DNA of 64,000 nt from Chrysomallon squamiferum (GCA_012295275.1 CM022665.1:34844001-34908000); one strand, 5' to 3'; positions 3,017-64,000 are shown, counted from the first letter of the stretch. The notes: generated by a model not told the origin, from the sequence alone. Translations and numbers: made by a program.

Positions 3017-3104
<88 letters not shown>
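3017..3104. repeat. (GA)n microsatellite
   Basis: Direct inspection; a second (GA)n run lies at ~3429-3497. Confidence 0.95.
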
Positions 3105-3427: not shown

Positions 3428-3500
<73 letters not shown>

Positions 3501-5465: not shown

Positions 5466-5813
5466 TTATCCTACGGGATTGACATATACTGGGGGAATAG
5501 GTGGTACATTAGTAGCTATATCAGATGCTTTTGCAAATCTTTCTTGATGCACAGCCCGGTATCCTTCAGTTCTGCTACTGTATTTATCCCAAAGACGACA
5601 CAAAACCGTACTGTTGATGTCTGCAAACTCGGCCATCACACAAGTTAAGTCGCTGACGCAGTCTCTGGCGCAAGTGAGGATGCTGTCGACTTCTATGCCA
5701 GCAATGACTGTATTTGGCGTCTGCGATGGAGACTCCACAGTAAATTGAGCTGTTACAGAACCTTCTGGAATGGCGAAGGGTAAAAACACTAGGAACATAA
5801 CCCAGTAAATCAT
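5466..5813 (-). CDS. Small secreted PAN/Apple-like domain protein (115 aa, single coding exon)
   Basis: MIYWVMFLVFLPFAIPEG hydrophobic signal, then S-x-L-x-CARDC-x2-D-x2-C-x4-F...C-x-L, the 4-Cys PAN core pattern, and a Pro-rich tail. A splice acceptor (ttattacag) at 5871-5870 suggests a 5' UTR intron; the longer ORF start at 5933 is probably intronic. Confidence 0.65.
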   Translation of the reverse strand: MIYWVMFLVFLPFAIPEGSVTAQFTVESPSQTPNTVIAGIEVDSILTCARDCVSDLTCVMAEFADINSTVLCRLWDKYSSRTEGYRAVHQERFAKASDIATNVPPIPPVYVNPVG

Positions 5814-6222
5814 GGTTGCTCTACCAGGTGCAGTACGATCACCGTTTGATTTTTTTTTGTTCTTCTGATCTGTAATAAAATAAATTTGACATGGTGTTAA
5901 TCGAATTACAATGTCAGGGATAGCAAATACCATTTCCTTTTATCGTTGGCTATTTGTAATTCTTTTTCGCCTTCATCCTTGCTCTCTGTTTTAGTTACTC
6001 TCATTTTTCTCTTACTCTCTTTCTTTCTTTAAACTCTGTTTCCATCTATTTTTTCCCCTGTCGCTCTTTCATTATCTTTCATACTTCTTCTTTGTCCGTA
6101 TCTATCACCGATCTCTTTATCTCTCTCTTATTCGTTTTTCCTTTCTGTCTGATTCTCTCCTTCTCACTGACCCTCTTAGTCTCACACAACTATCCATCAT
6201 CATTTTGTTTCTTTTCTTATTT

Positions 6223-6348
<126 letters not shown>

Positions 6349-10546: not shown

Positions 10547-11177
10547 AATGATTATAATAAACACTATGCATTATGATGCTGATAATGGTGATGTGGGTAC
10601 TGCTGCTGCTGATGACCACAGTGGTTGTAAAATGATAAAGATGATTATACATTTTTATAGACGAAAAGTGAACAGGCAAATATTTGGGAGAAAACTAAAG
10701 GCTTCATTAATCTAAAATATAATAGTCACAAGTAAATTACTGGACGGGATAACAAATTGGTTGTAATATATATGAATGGGTGGATGGACGTATGTATGTA
10801 GGCATGTATGCATGCAATAGCTTTAAACAAGAAAGTCTACTTTAAATGATTTTAAAATGATATTGAGGAATTGCTAAAATTAACGATCAAATACTAATAA
10901 CTGACAGCAGAAAACAATAATAAAGAATATGTAAAGGATATTTTAAATTTTATTTTGCTTTTCATGATAATTATTTTATTATTTTATTAGGTGCTTATGG
11001 AATATGGTCTGCTGTTGTAAAGAAAAGCAAAATTATTTTGTTTATATACAGATCCATCACAATACCTTCATAATAAATAATTAAAAAATGTAGTTAATAA
11101 AAGTAGCTTACAATTAATATTATGTACAAAAGAAATAGAAAACCTACCAACTGTTTTCTTATCAATGAAGCAGTCTC

Positions 11178-14100
11178 CTACTCGACAAGAGATTGAGAAG
11201 ATGAGAACGAGTCGAGTTTGTCTCGCTTGTCGTCATCCAAAGACTGAGAAGATGAGAACGAGTCGAGTTTGTCTCGCTTGTCGTCATCCAGAAACTGAGA
11301 AGACGAGAACGAGTCACTGATTTCTCTCTTGTCGTCATCCAGAGACTGAGAAGAGGAGAACGAGTCGAGTTTGTCCCTCTTGTCGTCGTCCAGAGATTGA
11401 GAAGATGAGAAAGAGTCGAGTTTATCTCGCTTGTCGTCATCCAAAGACTGAGAAGATGAGAACGAGTCGAGTTTGTCTCGCTTGTCGTCATCCAGAGACT
11501 GAGAAGACGAAAACGAATCAAGTTTGTCTCGTTTGTCGTCATCCAAAGACTGAGAAGATGAGAACGAGTCAAGTTTGTCTCGCTTGTCGTCATCCAAAGA
11601 CTGAGAAGATGAGAACGAATCAAGTTTGTCTCGCTTGTCGTCATCCAAAGACTGAGAAGATGAGAACGAGTCCAGTTTGTCTCGCTTGTCGTCCTCCAAA
11701 GACTGAGAAGATGAGAACGAGTCCAGTTTGTCTCGCTTGTCGTCATCCAAAGACTGAGAAGATGAGAACGAGTCGAGTTTGTCCCTCTTGTCGTCGTCCA
11801 GAGATTGAGAAGATGAGAAAGAGTCGAGTTTGTCTCGCTTGTCGTCATCCAGAGACTGAGAAGATGAGAACGAGTCACTGATTTCTCTCTTGTCGTCATC
11901 CAGAGACTGAGAAGATGAGAACGAGTCAAGTTTGTCTCGCTTGTCATCATCCAGAGACTGAGAAGATGAGAACGAGTCGAGTTTGTCCCTCTTGTCGTCG
12001 TCCAGAGATTGAGAAGATGAGAAAGAGTCGAGTTTGTCTCGCTTGTCGTCATCCAGAGACTGAGAAGACGAAAACGAGTCAAGTTTGTCTCGCTTGTCGT
12101 CATCCAAAGACTGAGAAGATGAGAACGAGTCCAGTTTGTCTCGCTTGTCGTCATCCAAAGACTGAGAAGATGAGAACGAGTCAAGTTTGTCTCGCTTGTC
12201 GTCATCCAAAGACTGAGAAGATGAGAACGAATCAAGTTTGTCTCGCTTGTCGTCATCCAAAGACTGAGAAGATGAGAACGAGTCAAGTTTGTCTCGCTTG
12301 TCGTCATCCAAAGACTGAGAAGATGAGAACGAGTCAAGTTTGTCTCGCTTGTCGTCATCCAAAGACTGAGAAGATGAGAACGAGTCGAGTTTGTCCCTCT
12401 TGTCGTCGTCCAGAGATTGAGAAGATGAGAAAGAGTCGAGTTTGTCTCGCTTGTCGTCATCCAGAGACTGAGAAGATGAGAAAGAGTCGAGTTTGTCCCT
12501 CTTGTCGTCATCCAGAGACTGAGAAGACGAAAACGAGTCAAGTTTGTCTCGCTTGTCGTCATCCAGAGACTGAGAAGATGAGAAAGAGTCGAGTTTGTCC
12601 CTCTTGTCGTCGTCCAGAGATTGAGAAGATGAGAAAGAGTCGAGTTTGTCTCGCTTGTCGTCATCCAGAGACTGAGAAGATGAGAAAGAGTCGAGTTTGT
12701 CCCTCTTGTCGTCATCCAGAGACTGAGAAGACGAAAACGAGTCAAGTTTGTCTCGCTTGTCGTCATCCAAAGACTGAGAAGACGAGAACGAGTCACTGAT
12801 TTCTCTCTTGTCATCATCTAGAGACTGAGAAGATGAGAACGAGTCACTGATTTCTCTCTTGTCGTCATCCAGAGACTGAGAAGATGAGAACGAGTCAAGT
12901 TTGTCTCGCTTGTCATCATCCAGAGACTGAGAAGATGAGAACGAGTCGAGTTTGTCCCTCTTGTCGTCGTCCAGAGATTGAGAAGATGAGAAAGAGTCGA
13001 GTTTATCTCGCTTGTCGTCATCCAAAGACTGAGAAGATGAGAACGAGTCACTGATTTCTCGCTTGTCATCATCCAGAGACTGAGAAGATGAGAACGAGTC
13101 AAGTTTGTCCCTCTTGTCATCATCCAGAGACTGAGAAGATGAGAACGAGTCGAGTTTGTCCCTCTTGTCGTCGTCCAGAGATTGAGAAGATGAGAAAGAA
13201 TCGAGTTTGTCTCGCTTGTCGTCATCCAGAGACTGAGAAGACGAAAACGAGTCAAGTTTGTCTCGCTTGTCGTCATCCAAAGACTGAGAAGATGAGAACG
13301 AGTCAAGTTTGTCTCGCTTGTCGTCATCCAAAGACTGAGAAGATGAGAACGAGTCAAGTTTGTCTCGCTTGTCGTCATCCAAAGACTGAGAAGATGAGAA
13401 CGAGTCGAGTTTGTCTCGCTTGTCGTCATCCAAAGACTGAGAAGACGAGAACGAGTCACTGATTTCTCTCTTGTCATCATCTAGAGACTGAGAAGATGAG
13501 AACGAGTCACTGATTTCTCTCTTGTCGTCATCCAGAGACTGAGAAGATGAGAACGAGTCAAGTTTGTCTCGCTTGTCATCATCCAGAGACTGAGAAGATG
13601 AGAACGAGTCGAGTTTGTCCCTCTTGTCGTCGTCCAGAGATTGAGAAGATAAGAAAGAATCGAGTTTATCTCGCTTGTCGTCATCCAAAGACTGAGAAGA
13701 TGAGAACGAGTCAAGTTTGTCTCGCTTGTCGTCATCCAAAGAATGAGAAGACGAGAACGAGTCACTGATTTCTCGCTTGTCATCATCCAGAGACTGAGAA
13801 GATGAGAACGAGTCAAGTTTGTCCCTCTTGTCATCATCCAGAGACTGAGAAGATGAGAACGAGTCGAGTTTGTCCCTCTTGTCGTCGTCCAGAGATTGAG
13901 AAGATGAGAAAGAGTCCAGTTTGTCTCGCTTGTCGTCATCCAGAGACTGAGAAGACGAAAACGAGTCAAGTTTGTCTCGCTTGTCGTCATCCAGAGACTG
14001 AGAAGACGAAAACGAGTCCAGTTTGTCTCGCTTGTCGTCATCCAAAGACTGAGAAGACGAGAACGAGTCACTGATTTCTCTCTTGTCATCATCTAGAGAC

Positions 14101-14695
14101 TGAGAAGATGAGAACGAGTCACTGATTTCTCTCTTGTCGTCATCCAGAGACTGAGAAGATGAGAACGAGTCAAGTTTGTCTCGCTTGTCATCATCCAGAG
14201 ACTGAGAAGATGAGAACGAGTCGAGTTTGTCCCTCTTGTCGTCGTCCAGAGATTGAGAAGATGAGAACGAGTCGAGTTTGTCTCGCTTGTGGTCATCCAA
14301 AGACTGAGAAGATGAAATGAAGTAGAGTTTGTCTCGCTTGTTGTCGTCTGGTAAACAGATTCATTGTTGTAAACAGAAACAAAATGAATTAATAATATTT
14401 TTGACAAGTAACAGTGAATACGTGTTTAAAGAAAATCATAGGATTCTGACAAAAAATTAATTTAGAAATTACTTTCAAATTTTCTTAAATTATCTCAGCA
14501 AAACATATTGGCAATTTATTCAGATTCTTCTCTAAAAAGACTAACTGTTTGAAAAGAAATTGTTTTTTACATACCAGAAAGAGGGACATTTTCGTACGTT
14601 TCTTCCCTCTTCTGCATCATAAAACCATTGTTAAGCGATTTTCCGAATGCAAAACCAACAAGGGCAAATCCTAAGGTTAGTAGTAGAAAGTTCAT
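11178..14695 (-). CDS. Secreted tandem-repeat polyprotein/prohormone-like precursor (~1096 aa) with ~62 KR-delimited acidic Ser-rich peptides
   Basis: Exon 1 14695..14575 encodes MNFLLLTLGFALVGFAFG (signal) KSLNNGFMMQ-KR-EETYENVPLS, with donor G|gtatgt. Exon 2 14347..11178 (acceptor tttaccag) continues in frame as DDN-KR-DKLYFISSSQSLDDH-KR into the 1040-aa ORF: 60 full 17-aa units plus a terminal DKLDSFSSSQSLVE*. TATA box upstream; poly(A) signals near 10983. Confidence 0.88.
11181..14345 (-). repeat. Coding 51-bp tandem repeat array (~62 units)
   Basis: Plus-strand unit gagaagatgagaacgagtcgagtttgtctcgcttgtcgtcatccaaagact (51 bp). Two peptide types: ~50 DKL-type and 10 EIS-type. Confidence 0.97.
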
Positions 14696-14740
14696 AGTGC
14701 AGTAACAAGTTCTTTCGTTTTTCGAAGCAATAGCGTATAA

Positions 14741-15163: not shown

Positions 15164-15239
<76 letters not shown>
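15164..15239. repeat. (AG)n microsatellite
   Basis: Direct inspection. Similar runs: (TC)n 15996-16068, (CT)n 17957-18021, (AG)n 27794-27879, (TAT)n 17118-17182, (AAT)n 4979-5025, (TTA)n 9490-9535. Confidence 0.95.
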
Positions 15240-15991: not shown

Positions 15992-16071
<80 letters not shown>

Positions 16072-17951: not shown

Positions 17952-18024
<73 letters not shown>

Positions 18025-21116: not shown

Positions 21117-29836
<8,720 letters not shown>

Positions 29837-56300: not shown

Positions 56301-59300
56301 AACATTGCCTGCAACACACATACGAGGCAAATGTGTGGTCACCTTACTCAATGAAACAGAATTACTTGTTTCTTATCTGAACAAGGATGTGAGTTGCCAT
56401 TTAATTTTTGAATTTGCAAGCTTGAATTTTTATTTTTAATAAATAGTAATAAAAATTAATTGAGCATAAATTAAAAAGTGAAGTATTTTATTTGACATTT
56501 AATAACATTAGATTTTCAGTAAATTTTTATTTATTTTAAAAAATGTCTTCTACATTTTCAGGACACATTTTTTTACTCACTAGTCTATGACCCTCAGCAA
56601 AAAACACTGCTTGCAGATAAAGGTGAAATCCGAGTTGGCTCAAAATATCAGGCTGAAGTAATTCCGTTATTAAAAGAAGGTAAATATATTTAATATCGAT
56701 CAATGTTTGTAATGATTTAAGTGTATATGTTGTGAAGAGGATTAAAGTTATACCAAGATAGGGGTTTGTAATCTTTACTTCAGTGGTTCAAGAAAAATGT
56801 TAATATTAAATCTCATTGCATGTGTATTTTACCACTAACTTTCAAAGTTAATATATTTTTGGTTTGTTTGCTAAGAAAAAAATGTAAAGATGTTGTATTT
56901 TGATGAACAGAACTTCTACTGCCTATCTGCCAGGTGTCTGTAATGTTACAGTGGATTAACACTGTTTTTGTTGCATGTTTTAACATGTCATCTGATGTAA
57001 CATGTCTTGGCACGTCATTAACACAACAGCAAATTGTCTTCATATTAAATATCTTCATAACAATAATGCCATTCAGACTCAAAATATTTTAATAATCATT
57101 ACAGGTTTATCTTTTTAATAGTTCATACATTGTTTATTAAAAAAAAAAAAAAAATTTTTTTTTTTTTTTTTTTCTTTGACAGAATTGTCATATAGTAGTA
57201 CCTTGTCTTGCAAATTTAATTTGTTCCATGGCCAAGCTCTTATCTCAATGTGCTTGTATATCAAATCAATTTCCCCAACTGAGATTAATTGAAATACCAT
57301 TAATCACTTCCAGACCCCCAAAAACCTCCCTCTTTTTTTTTTTCTTTTTTTTTTTGTAACGTGTTTTTAAATAAGAAAAATGTATTTATAAATGACAAAT
57401 ATTGTATAAAAAAACAATAAAAGAGAATGTAAAGAAATAAATTTGTTTTGTAAAGTGTATTTATCTTGGAGATCAGACAAATTATTTTAACGCCTTTGGT
57501 TGGAGTTATAGCCTTTATCGACTCCTTCAGCTTCAGTATGATACATATTGTAGAAGTACTATGCTCGTACTGCCTTGCCAAGTCAACTACATGAACACCT
57601 CGCTCATGTTTTTCTATGAATTCAAGCTTTAATTCAATGGACATCATCCGCTTCTTCTTCTGGGCACTGTCCTTTGCACTCTCTCTCTTGTGGTCCATGG
57701 TCAGAAAAAAAAATCGACCGGGCGACTGCTCATAACTCGAAAAACTTATAAGTCGAGGTGCCACTGTATTCTTTAATGTATTTATTTTAAAATGCTGTTG
57801 TTATCATTGTATGAAATAAAATGTTTCAGGGGAAGAAGATGAAAGGGAATCAAAAGATTTAGAAGAATTAGTTTGGGAACCAGACAAATTAACAGATAAA
57901 GAAATAGATCAATTTCAAATTATCTCAAGGTAAGAAATTGTATGAAATAAATTGAATGCCTTGGGTATATTTTGGGGGGGGGATAACATTACATAGAATA
58001 TCTGTATAAATGGAAACCATGTCATGACAAAACAACCAGCTTGTATATAATTAATTAAAAATATATGAATTTATTGCATGATGATTAATAGGGTGTAATT
58101 ATCATTACTGCCTAATGTGCTTTTGGAATTAATAGTTCAGCTAAACTTACTTTGGATTTTATTTCAAGATGGGCTGGGCTGAATATCTGTAACTAAACTG
58201 AATATTAGTTGTAAGGAAGCATTAAATACATTTTTAAAAAATATATAAAATATTGACAAATAACAATCTTGGTTTGACATTTCATACTGAATAGCAGTTT
58301 AAATTAATTGTATGAGAAAGAAATTTTTTATTTTTACATTCAGCTTATTCAGTGGTATATATATTATTATAGGTCAGTGGGTACCTTTGCTCGTGCTTTA
58401 GACTGCACAAGCACAGTGCGGCAGCCCAGTCTACATATGAGTGCAGCAGCAGCTTCTAGAGATATTACACTTGTAAGTGTTTATTTCACTATTACTTGCA
58501 TTTGTATGTTAAGAAAAAAATAAATAAAACAAAACTAGCAAAAGTTGATTTCTATTTTATTAAAAATGGTTGACACTTCATACATAATAAAAGACAAGAT
58601 GTTTACCTTTTAACAGTGCTTTGATTTTCTGGATTTATCTCTTACATACCAAAATATCAGTTTTAACTATTTAAATGCATATATACAGCATAATTAAATT
58701 TTATAAAACTATAATAAAGCCATTTTATTATTTATATAAAGTGAATAAAAAGGTCCAGATTTAAAAAAAAAATTAAAAAATTGTATGTACTTTAGAAACT
58801 CTTATTATCAAAATGGATAAAAACACTTACATTAATCACTTTTGTTTTTTCTTACTGTTATTTGTTTTAACTATTTTTCAGTTCCATGCAATGAATACAT
58901 TACATACACACAAGTACAATATAGCAAATGCTGTGTCCAGTCTAGTCCCTGAAGGTGGTCCAGTCCTGTGTCGTGATGAAATGGAGGAATGGTCTGCATC
59001 AGAGGCAAACCTGTTTGAAGAGGCCCTTGATAAATACGGCAAAGACTTCAATGATATTAGACAAGATTTTGTAAGTAGAATAAATGTAGTGATGTCATTA
59101 GAAAGTCAGAGAAAGCTTTATGTTTTTGTACATTTGTAACACGTTAAGAAAAATAAGATCTAAATAAAATCTAAAATGGTTCATTATACATGTTAAAATT
59201 TCACAGACTACTAGGGCTTCTAATAAAACCCAAGCCTAAGAAAATCTTGTGAAATAGATTTTTCTGAGTTTGATATTATACAATTAAAAAATGAACACAG

Positions 59301-62300: not shown

Positions 62301-62832
62301 AACGTGTGGGCCCAAAAGAGAAGCCAGTCGTAGTCATAGGTGTACAATTTCTGGCTGTGGAAAGGTGAATAATTTAATTTGTCACTATAACTAATCATCA
62401 TATAAATTTTGCATGTTTTCAAATAGGAGTTAATGTAATAGGTCAACTGAACCTGTAGCTTTGTTATTCATTTTACATTATAAATATTATACCAGAGTTC
62501 TTCTAAATTAGCACATGTACAATTATACCTTCTTGACAAAAAATCTAAATGGGTTTGTTTAAACATTTACCTATCTTGCATTATGCTAATGATAACATTT
62601 TTGTAGGATTTCAAGCTGAAGGTGCACCTTGCAAGACACTTGGCAACTGCACATGGGTTAGCCATCAGATCAGGCAGTCCTCGTCCTGTCATGAAAACCC
62701 GTGCTGCATTCTGCCTCGTTACAACACCACTCACCAGAATCTCACGACGTATGTGCAAGGATATTCTCAGGCCCAGGCATGCGGCTCGATGTCCATTTGT
62801 TCCAATAAACATCGCAGCTATCAAACAAGAGT
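44374..62832 (+). CDS. MTA1: Metastasis-associated protein (MTA1/2/3 family, NuRD subunit); BAH-ELM2-SANT-GATA; 3' end beyond window
   Basis: Exons: 44374-44401, 44914-44981, 45149-45242, [47145-47195 cassette], 56138-56388, 56562-56679, 57830-57929, 58373-58472, 58882-59070, 59465-59539, 59914-59972, 60145-60230, 61263-61379, 61968-62000, 62301-62364, 62607-62832. Motifs [108 protein letters not shown]. One 1-nt phase mismatch at 62301-62364. Confidence 0.95.
57300..57766 (-). mobile_element. Tigger/pogo-family DNA transposon 5' fragment in MTA intron
   Basis: TA|CAGTGGCACCTCGACTTA TIR at 57766 (minus). ORF segment [43 protein letters not shown] is a CENP-B/psq-type HTH of Tigger transposases; truncated. 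Confidence 0.85.
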
Positions 62833-64000
62833 GTAAGTTGAAAGGCATCATTTATAATGGGTACGATATGAATGACAGAATCGAAAAAATGGACATGAAC
62901 AATTCAGTCATGGATAAGGTTGATGAAAAATCAGGTTTTGAAGAGAATGGAGACAGTCAAGTCATACACATGGACATAAGAGAATAGTCAGGGAATGGAT
63001 TCAGATGGTCTCTTGACTGGAGATCCATAGTAATGTCCTAAATTGAATTCCATTGTGTTTTGTTTTTTTTGAGACAGAACCACAAGCCATGATTTGGTAC
63101 AATGCATTTTCAGGAATCAAAAGATTAGTTTTATGCATTTTGCCAAATGGTATCTTTTTGATACTTGGTATCTTTGGTCCTCATTGGTTGTTAAAGAGTT
63201 CAGCTCTTTTGTCTTTAAACTTCAGATTTTAATTATGATACAAAAAATATTTTCTGCATCAAGTATTTGCCACTGGTTTTTTATTATTATTATTTTTTTA
63301 ATACATCACTGAAATTAGACTTTTAGATTTTCATGCGTGATAAAATAATGTTTTTCCGAAGCAGAACTTTTTATTTATCATCATTTTCTTTTTAAAAAAG
63401 GCCATTTAAAGACAAATTTTGTTAACAAGTTAAAGTGTCAGTCAGGCTTGGGGCCAATAAATAAGTGTATCATTTATAAATAAAACCCCACCTACCACTG
63501 TTGATACTTTAATTGTTTTAAACTATATACAATTTGTATATCCAAATTTGTATATTCATTTCTGTATGTTTAACTTTTACCTTACATTTTATATATACAT
63601 ACATTAAGTATTCAATCAAACTAGATTATTGAAGCATTACCTAGTATAAAATATTAAGAAATACAGTAGCCAGTTGAAGCACTGATACCATTCAGTGAAG
63701 AAAAATAAAGAATAGGAAGTGATAGAAAGCTGGATGTCTGCAGCTAGAATAGTTAAATTAAAAAGAAAGGTGAACAGTTGTAACATTTGGTTTTAGAGTA
63801 GTATGTTTTTGTGCTTTTATTATTAATTTTGCTTTCATTAGTGAAATATTTTTAACCATGTACCAACAGTCTTCACACTTTGTGTGATGTATTAATGCTG
63901 AAAATGTATAACTTGCTGAAAGTAAGGCTTTACATACAGTAATAGTAATATTTTTATATTACAAGATATTTTTAGATCTGCGATTTGAAATTTGAAAGCA

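Follow-up and report, generated by a model that had tools for sequence, protein, structure and literature searches.

A signal peptide followed by peptides flanked by dibasic sites is listed in an excerpt of PMC6425005 as a combination of common traits of neuropeptide precursors, and some of these precursors carry many copies of a peptide: up to 28 in the FCAP precursor of Lottia according to the same excerpt, and up to 50 in cnidarian preprohormones according to an excerpt of PMC7523074. In fungi, Kex2-processed repeat proteins (KEPs) also release near-identical secreted peptides from between KR sites, cut in the secretory pathway, and their functions are mostly unknown, according to excerpts of PMC7329392, PMC9769878 and PMC6339444. 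Here we describe a gene of this general plan from Chrysomallon squamiferum. It lies on the minus strand of a stretch of 64,000 nucleotides (GCA_012295275.1, CM022665.1:34844001-34908000; hereafter the window, with positions counted from its first base), where its coding region extends from position 14,695 down to 11,178. With moderate confidence, we read it as the gene for a multi-copy precursor that would be cleaved into secretory peptides of a new family, about 60 non-amidated acidic peptides of 15 residues, for which no homologue is detectable. The architecture is classical and follows the proneuropeptide plan; what is new is the extreme copy number, the wholly anionic, non-amidated product and the lack of homologues.

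Each of the described systems resembles this gene in part. The high-copy preprohormones of cnidarians and of Lottia, as far as the excerpts above describe them, share the arrangement of many identical copies and dibasic sites behind a single signal peptide. Their peptides are short and mostly amidated, however, and the cnidarian ones are without acidic residues in the excerpt of PMC7523074, whereas the precursor described here has no Gly in its repeat exon, carries a charge of -4 or -5 on each 15-residue peptide and reaches 60-62 copies, above the maxima of 50 and 28 given in those excerpts. The fungal KEPs belong to another kingdom and have no sequence relation to this protein, so that the likeness is one of analogy only. 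Molluscan pedal peptide precursors (P0149 of the PP1 type; P0171 and P0195 of the PP2 type) also combine a signal peptide with many tandem non-amidated peptides between KR or KK sites. Common to both are a period of 17-18 residues, an x-L-D-S-hydrophobic motif near the N-terminus (in 50 of 60 units here) and, in the PP2 type, a DDD-KR spacer at the end of the unit. Nevertheless, the similarity finds no statistical support; the C-terminus is acidic here and hydrophobic there, 10 units here are without the motif, the copies are about 2-4 times more numerous than the 12-22 motif-bearing peptides of nine reference precursors, and the units here are nearly perfectly uniform.

Reading the minus strand and translating it recovered an intact two-exon gene with a TATA box, an ATG, a hydrophobic leader, consensus splice sites and an open frame (Table 1). 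The TATA promoter, the signal-peptide exon, the in-frame 14575/14347 splice and the 3.17-kb exon proposed by the first-pass annotation of this DNA thus all lie on this strand at the positions that it gave. A TCA about 33 nt 3' of the TATAAAA box is a possible initiator. The start ATG (14695-14693) has an A at -3 and opens a signal-peptide-like leader of 18 residues, MNFLLLTLGFALVGFAFG (14695-14642). The core of this leader, residues 3-17, has a mean Kyte-Doolittle hydropathy of 2.43, and the hydrophilic sequence that follows has a mean of -1.09. The predicted cut is preceded by A-F-G, with small residues at positions -3 and -1; the signal peptide was judged by hydropathy and by the residues near the cut.

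The leader reaches the repeat array through one predicted splice. At the donor, CTG/GTATGT (14575/14574), the frame of exon 1 would otherwise run to a stop three codons further on, and the acceptor reads ...tttgtttctgtttac...ccag/AC (14348/14347). Translation verified that the splice is in frame, with G and AC forming an Asp codon. The stop-to-stop open frame of the array starts at 14360, with an in-frame stop just 5' of the acceptor. Because the frame opens only there, the acceptor at 14348 is the sole pyrimidine-tract AG able to feed the array, and the sole well-formed donor and acceptor pair joins the two exons in the correct phase. The spliced coding sequence comprises 3291 nt and encodes 1096 amino acids. 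Exon 2 encodes no Met, Cys, Gly, Pro or Trp, and since it has no Met, its 1060-codon open frame can be translated only through the spliced signal-peptide exon.

Tandem Repeats Finder described positions 11188-14345 as a repeat of period 51 with 61.9 copies, 90% matches and 0% indels. Exon 2 contains 62 units of 51 bp, of which 60 are full and encode a 15-mer plus KR. Translation confirmed the census that had been proposed for them: 60 full KR-bounded 15-mers (50 of one type and 10 of another), one degenerate first unit and one truncated last unit. The first type, hereafter DKL, is represented by 48 exact copies of DKLDSFSSSQSLDDD-KR, and the second, hereafter EIS, by 8 exact copies of EISDSFSSSQSLDDD-KR. 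The four remaining units each differ by one residue: the changes are S7L and D13E among the DKL units, and Q10H and S11F among the EIS units. A core, DSFSSSQSLDDD, is common to both types. All 63 dibasic sites are exactly K-R and bound the 60 full 15-mers and four end pieces; splitting the protein after each K-R gives 64 pieces, namely a leader piece, EETYENVPLSDDN, DKLYFISSSQSLDDH, the 60 full 15-mers and DKLDSFSSSQSLVE.

The composition is dominated by Ser (30%) and Asp (28%), with five Ser in the peptide. Per peptide, the side chains carry a computed net charge of -4 (DKL) or -5 (EIS), in agreement with the charge given in the first-pass annotation. Its statement that there is no amidation Gly also holds: exon 2 has no Gly at all, and an amidation signal is therefore absent.

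The variation among the units allowed us to ask how the frame has been maintained. At the nucleotide level, the 60 full units fall into 28 versions, which encode only 6 peptide versions, and a single one of the six reading frames is open and uniform, the other five holding 12-28 distinct 17-mers and 3-94 stops. Among the 50 DKL units, we counted 15 synonymous variant types (140 occurrences) and two non-synonymous ones, both singletons. Given 35 synonymous versus 118 non-synonymous changes that are possible in this class, the binomial P is 2e-8, and it is still 9e-6 under the assumption that 35% of mutations are synonymous. DKL variant types seen at least three times are synonymous in 13 of 13 cases. 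At the cleavage sites, the Arg codon alternates between CGA, AGA and AGG, and K-R is kept in 63 of 63. The peptide frame is under purifying selection; the array is not just an open minisatellite, and it grew by block duplication, with units recurring in higher-order blocks (a four-unit block, CDEF, is present three times) and with identity peaks at lags of 12-14 units. We infer that purifying selection acted over a long time on a few founder units and that the array has expanded recently, via unequal exchange.

In the processing route that we propose, the leader would bring the protein into the endoplasmic reticulum and would be removed after Gly18. A PC1/PC2-like convertase in a regulated secretory cell would then cut after each K-R. 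Furin recognizes the consensus R-x-K/R-R, and the K-R sites of this protein do not match it because P4 is Asp. A carboxypeptidase E/D-like enzyme would next trim the K-R, and the resulting free-acid peptides would be stored and secreted: 48 copies of DKLDSFSSSQSLDDD, 8 of EISDSFSSSQSLDDD, 4 variants with one residue changed and 4 end pieces, each of them unique. The computed monoisotopic masses are 1657.6955 Da for DKLDSFSSSQSLDDD and 1630.6482 Da for EISDSFSSSQSLDDD.

Several observations weigh against a precursor that is cleaved into peptides. With five Ser and a charge of -4 or -5, unamidated and with a C-terminus that is neither aromatic nor hydrophobic, the peptide would be unusual as a receptor ligand, and the Ser and Asp content is the composition of acidic matrix proteins. 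The K-R could be the basic half of a DDD-KR-DK charge pattern in an uncleaved protein. Singleton changes, 2 synonymous versus 4 non-synonymous, are indistinguishable from neutral, which implies weak selection on individual copies, and block duplication may explain part of the uniformity of the units. For a tandem array of 3.2 kb, the number of copies is also dependent on the assembly. No homologue was found from which a function could be transferred, and the sequencing data examined gave no RNA, splice-junction or peptide support. A single public run (X1, of unknown kind), and no RNA run, was found to contain the stretch; X1 covers the intron at the same depth as exon 1 and therefore looks like DNA. 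The piece of an X1 contig that spans exon 1 and the intron has one difference in 527 bases, at 14697, two bases upstream of the ATG, where X1 has A and the window has G (plus strand). Among contigs from three RNA runs that carry the same organism label, none lay on exon 1 or the intron, a result that is uninformative either way.

These points bear on what the 15-mers might do if they are released. Their chemistry is atypical for a receptor ligand, and neither a signal nor a bulk anionic secretion is favored by the data. We regard as possible, rather than probable, that this is a new peptide family of one gastropod lineage, unrelated to known neuropeptides, in which the 15-mers with the DSFSSSQSLDDD core are packaged, released and active as free peptides, not as classical receptor ligands but in bulk, as anionic and perhaps phosphorylated effectors. 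They might, for example, regulate cations or minerals or be a granin-like component of a granule matrix.

The first-pass annotation did not recognize the peptide as a described family, and the searches for relatives agreed, whether among proteins, in Pfam, in the ESM Atlas, in metagenomes or in the literature. In a word-indexed search of exon 2 against proteins of near length, none of the 7986 scored candidates reached E <= 0.001. A phmmer search against 1.84 billion representatives returned 72 matches at E <= 0.001, with 12-38% identity and none at 1e-30 or below. The strongest internal period of 61 of these 72 was 17 or 34 residues, and we conclude that for those 61 the periodicity of the query, not homology, drives the scores, as they are merely proteins of the same period. 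By phmmer, there was no likeness to deposited shell-matrix or other proteins beyond common periodicity. The repeat protein matched no Pfam family, its best score in the ESM Atlas was 0.88, under the lead threshold of 0.9, and none of 51 pattern matches in metagenome contigs was confirmed. The peptide strings were absent from searchable full texts (supplements were outside this search), the lone match, KLDSFS, being to an unrelated L-selectin paper, and motif strings gave chance matches only in the 12 of 27 supplementary files of an abalone shell proteome that were searched.

Several unrelated neuropeptide precursors (P0121 and P0127 from crustaceans; P0149, P0171 and P0196-P0199 of molluscan type) have a 17-residue unit composed of a peptide, a dibasic site, an acidic spacer of 3-5 residues and KR. 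Their period alone is enough for a repetitive query to retrieve them, a pitfall when repeat proteins are used in homology searches. The best per-unit match was another mollusc protein, Pecten maximus LOC117331541 (P0125), in which a 17-residue repeat, EPYTSLSTTTAVSDD-KR, occurs seven times. It shares the pattern S-[LF]-S-[ST]-[ST]-x-x-[LV]-x-D-D-K-R at 38% identity by phmmer. In contrast to the protein studied here, however, its repeats follow a transmembrane segment and a RLRRGRQ stretch that resembles a stop-transfer signal; on this predicted topology, they are likely cytoplasmic and out of the reach of a convertase.

We next weighed the readings in which the array is not a source of new peptides. 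A serious rival, though in our view a doubtful one, is that the protein is an uncleaved or partly cleaved, acidic, Ser/Asp-rich secreted matrix protein of shell or scale, mucus, adhesive or egg coat. The 17-residue unit would in that case be a polyampholyte module, with DDD as an acidic block, KRDK as a basic block and a Ser run for phosphate or sugar, and it would serve in the bulk binding of cations or mineral surfaces. This corresponds to the function that the first-pass annotation preferred, except that cleavage is no longer required. The abundance of Ser and Asp, the lack of Cys, Gly and Pro and the signal peptide ahead of the frame all suit such a protein, as does the Asp at P4, with which a constitutive furin cut is not expected. 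The neutral-looking recent singletons are what one would expect if no single unit mattered.

Acidic, Asp/Ser-rich sequences occur in biomineral proteins and phosphopeptides, with the DSS repeats of dentin phosphophoryn, ASARM and the SSSEE clusters of caseins as known motifs. Like this protein, acidic biomineral proteins such as aspein, asprich and phosphophoryn combine a signal peptide, extreme Asp and Ser content, tandem repeats and presumed disorder; unlike it, they have no regular K-R punctuation, their sequences are not similar to it, and the absence of S-x-E from the consensus unit sets this protein further apart. Aspein and asprich are mentioned as biomineral proteins in an excerpt of PMC6003135, which also reports that abalone shell matrices hold disordered proteins built of tandem repeats that are very acidic, their Asp content being 25-36%.

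What speaks against an uncut matrix protein is first the constancy of the cleavage sites: K-R is present at 63 of 63 without a single K/R swap, even though the Arg codon has changed synonymously. The fully synonymous character of the shared DKL variants (13 of 13 types) is also stricter than the usual behavior of structural repeats. Similarity to deposited shell-matrix proteins did not extend beyond periodicity, and the abalone supplements (12 of 27 files) yielded nothing above chance.

The phosphorylation motifs are ambiguous, although the scarcity of S-x-E counts against the matrix reading. Secretory kinases phosphorylate Ser in the motif S-x-E/pS. The consensus unit contains S-x-S three times, S-x-D once and no S-x-E, which is missing from 59 of the 60 full units, the sole carrier being unit 52 with SLEDD. 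Hierarchical phosphorylation of S-x-pS would need a priming site. The first-pass annotation had preferred a Ca/Fe-binding phosphopeptide on the basis of composition only, and this preference finds no direct support in the sequence, since the consensus unit has no S-x-E and only 1 of 60 units carries one.

We consider it unlikely that the gene is a strongly diverged member of the pedal peptide/orcokinin (PP/OK) neuropeptides, an alternative that had also been raised in the first-pass annotation. The route would be a PP2-type unit (peptide-KK-DDD-KR, 17 residues) that lost its internal KK, so that the peptide and the acidic spacer were released together. Two of the 72 phmmer matches are indeed gastropod precursors of pedal peptide type. 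P0149 is a 'pedal peptide protein' of Plakobranchus ocellatus (PP1) with units RLDSISGNSAFQGFG-KR, and P0171, from Biomphalaria glabrata (PP2-type), has among its relatives an Elysia marginata 'pedal peptide 2 precursor' (P0195), with units such as HLDGIASSLI-KK-DDGE-KR; P0196 and P0199 carry the unit RFDRLTSGFV-KK-DDD-KR. The 50 DKL-type units bear K-L-D-S-F-S right after the cleavage site, where the Plakobranchus pedal peptide has R-L-D-S-I-S. The 17-residue period, the lack of amidation and the DDD-KR ending, as in the PP2 spacers of P0196 and P0199, are further likenesses. We derived a PP/OK motif, x-[F/L/Y]-D-x-[I/L/V], from 9 gastropod-type precursors, with no curated model; [FLYIVM]-D-[SGRET]-[ILVFM] occurred within the first three residues in 1.4% of unit shuffles, which lends mild support to the family reading, and anywhere in 5.4%.

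Alignment of whole units did not bear out these likenesses. The score of the DKL type was reached by 213 of 2000 shuffles against PP1 and by 213 to 1228 of 2000 against five PP2 units, and that of the EIS type by 1029 of 2000 against PP1. Clearly unrelated proteins of period 17 scored better, namely the spacer of a crustacean xxAWAG-amide precursor (8 of 2000) and the Pecten membrane protein (0 of 2000), the latter a winner's-curse effect, as this top match was picked from 1.84 billion proteins. The 10 EIS-type units are without the motif and yet equally conserved, which makes DSFSSSQSLDDD, and not xLDSx, the constrained core. In the 9 pedal-peptide-type precursors, 154 of 155 motif-bearing peptides have a hydrophobic end and 1 of 155 has at least two acidic end residues, whereas the peptides here end in DDD. 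The prevalence of proteins that are simply 17- or 34-residue-periodic among the phmmer matches (61 of 72) also counts against membership. P0149 and P0171 matched no relevant Pfam family, and there is no Pfam model for PP/OK.

BLASTP matches to P0149 (4e-16) and P0171 (6e-06) were given no weight, because one weak unit match repeats many times and inflates the E-values. With a unit similarity that is within the shuffled range and no hydrophobic C-terminus, PP/OK membership does not count as demonstrated, and the corresponding proposal of the first-pass annotation did not rise above shuffled controls. An excerpt of PMC5656890 states that no PP/OK receptor had been identified as of 2017.

Finally, it is highly improbable that the array is a minisatellite without function or expression, open by accident, or a gene that died recently: the missing transcript support, the lack of a homologue and the near-neutral singletons would fit, but the synonymous excess among variants (P = 2e-8), the sole open and uniform frame of six, the right-phase consensus splice to a signal-peptide exon, the TATA box and AATAAA signals, and the second DNA data set, X1, that carries exon 1 and the intron with one difference in 527 bases all argue against it.

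Table 1. Positions of the elements of the repeat gene and of its array within the window.
Feature	Position	Strand	Remarks
TATAAAA box	14777-14771	-	Read from the sequence; ATG 82 nt downstream
Exon 1, coding part	14695-14575	-	121 nt; ATG and leader, followed by KSLNNGFMMQ-KR-EETYENVPLS; last base opens an Asp codon
Predicted phase-1 intron	14574-14348	-	227 nt; GTATGT...pyrimidine tract...CAG
Exon 2, coding part	14347-11178	-	3170 nt including the TAG stop; DDNKR, then 62 repeat units
Unit 1, degenerate: DKLYFISSSQSLDDH-KR	14283-14333	-	From translation
Units 2-61, 60 full 51-bp units: 50 of DKLDSFSSSQSLDDD-KR type and 10 of EISDSFSSSQSLDDD-KR type	11223-14282	-	
Unit 62, truncated: DKLDSFSSSQSLVE, then TAG stop	11178-11222	-	
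Three AATAAA polyadenylation-like signals	10949-10988	-	189, 197 and 223 nt past the stop; putative function

Outside the array, the window has a G+C content of 23-33% and many (AG)n runs. Seven (AG)n/(CT)n microsatellites, perfect or nearly so and 32-56 repeats long, lie in the 64 kb (3017-3104, 3429-3497, 6225-6336, 15164-15239, 15997-16068, 17958-18021 and 27794-27880), one of them about 390 bp upstream of the TATA box of the repeat gene. Two plus-strand exons belong to a gene for MTA (metastasis-associated, a NuRD subunit), at 58777-59139 and 62607-62987; one carries a SANT/Myb-like stretch and the other matches MTA_R1 (E = 2e-27). The best matches of the exon at 62607-62987 are molluscan: Gigantopelta aegis with 97% identity over 63% of the query, Haliotis species with 96% and Octopus with 84%. 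By themselves, these matches place the window in a mollusc, most likely a gastropod close to vetigastropods or neomphalines.

Three further stretches were noted on the minus strand. An open frame at 5466-5939, 5 kb downstream of the repeat gene and on the same strand, begins with a hydrophobic leader of its own (MIYWVMFLVFLPFAIPEG...) and has a weak match to PAN_3 (PAN/Apple-like; E = 0.006, below the Pfam cut-off); judging from its sequence, it may encode another small secreted protein. The 254-codon open stretch at 21554-22318 is rich in Ser, Pro and Lys, has no Pfam match and is probably an exon of a nuclear-type protein. An open frame at 57300-57800 contains a basic stretch that looks like a helix-turn-helix, with no Pfam match at E <= 0.01; it may resemble the N-terminus of pogo/Tigger-type transposases.

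Altogether, the best course is to treat the peptides as a new, lineage-restricted family that follows the classical plan of multi-copy precursors. The exact masses and the splice junction make the peptide hypothesis directly testable. On either reading, the protein is currently absent from protein databases, which illustrates how repeat genes of this kind, with a single large exon, escape annotation. If the protein is left uncut, it would be a new acidic repeat protein of mollusc secretion or biomineral. As a lineage-restricted secretory peptide gene, it would offer a clean case of growth by block duplication with a fixed peptide sequence. If the peptides really are made, the precursor would be among those with the highest peptide copy number described, and it would found a family of unusual chemistry, strongly anionic, Ser-clustered and non-amidated.

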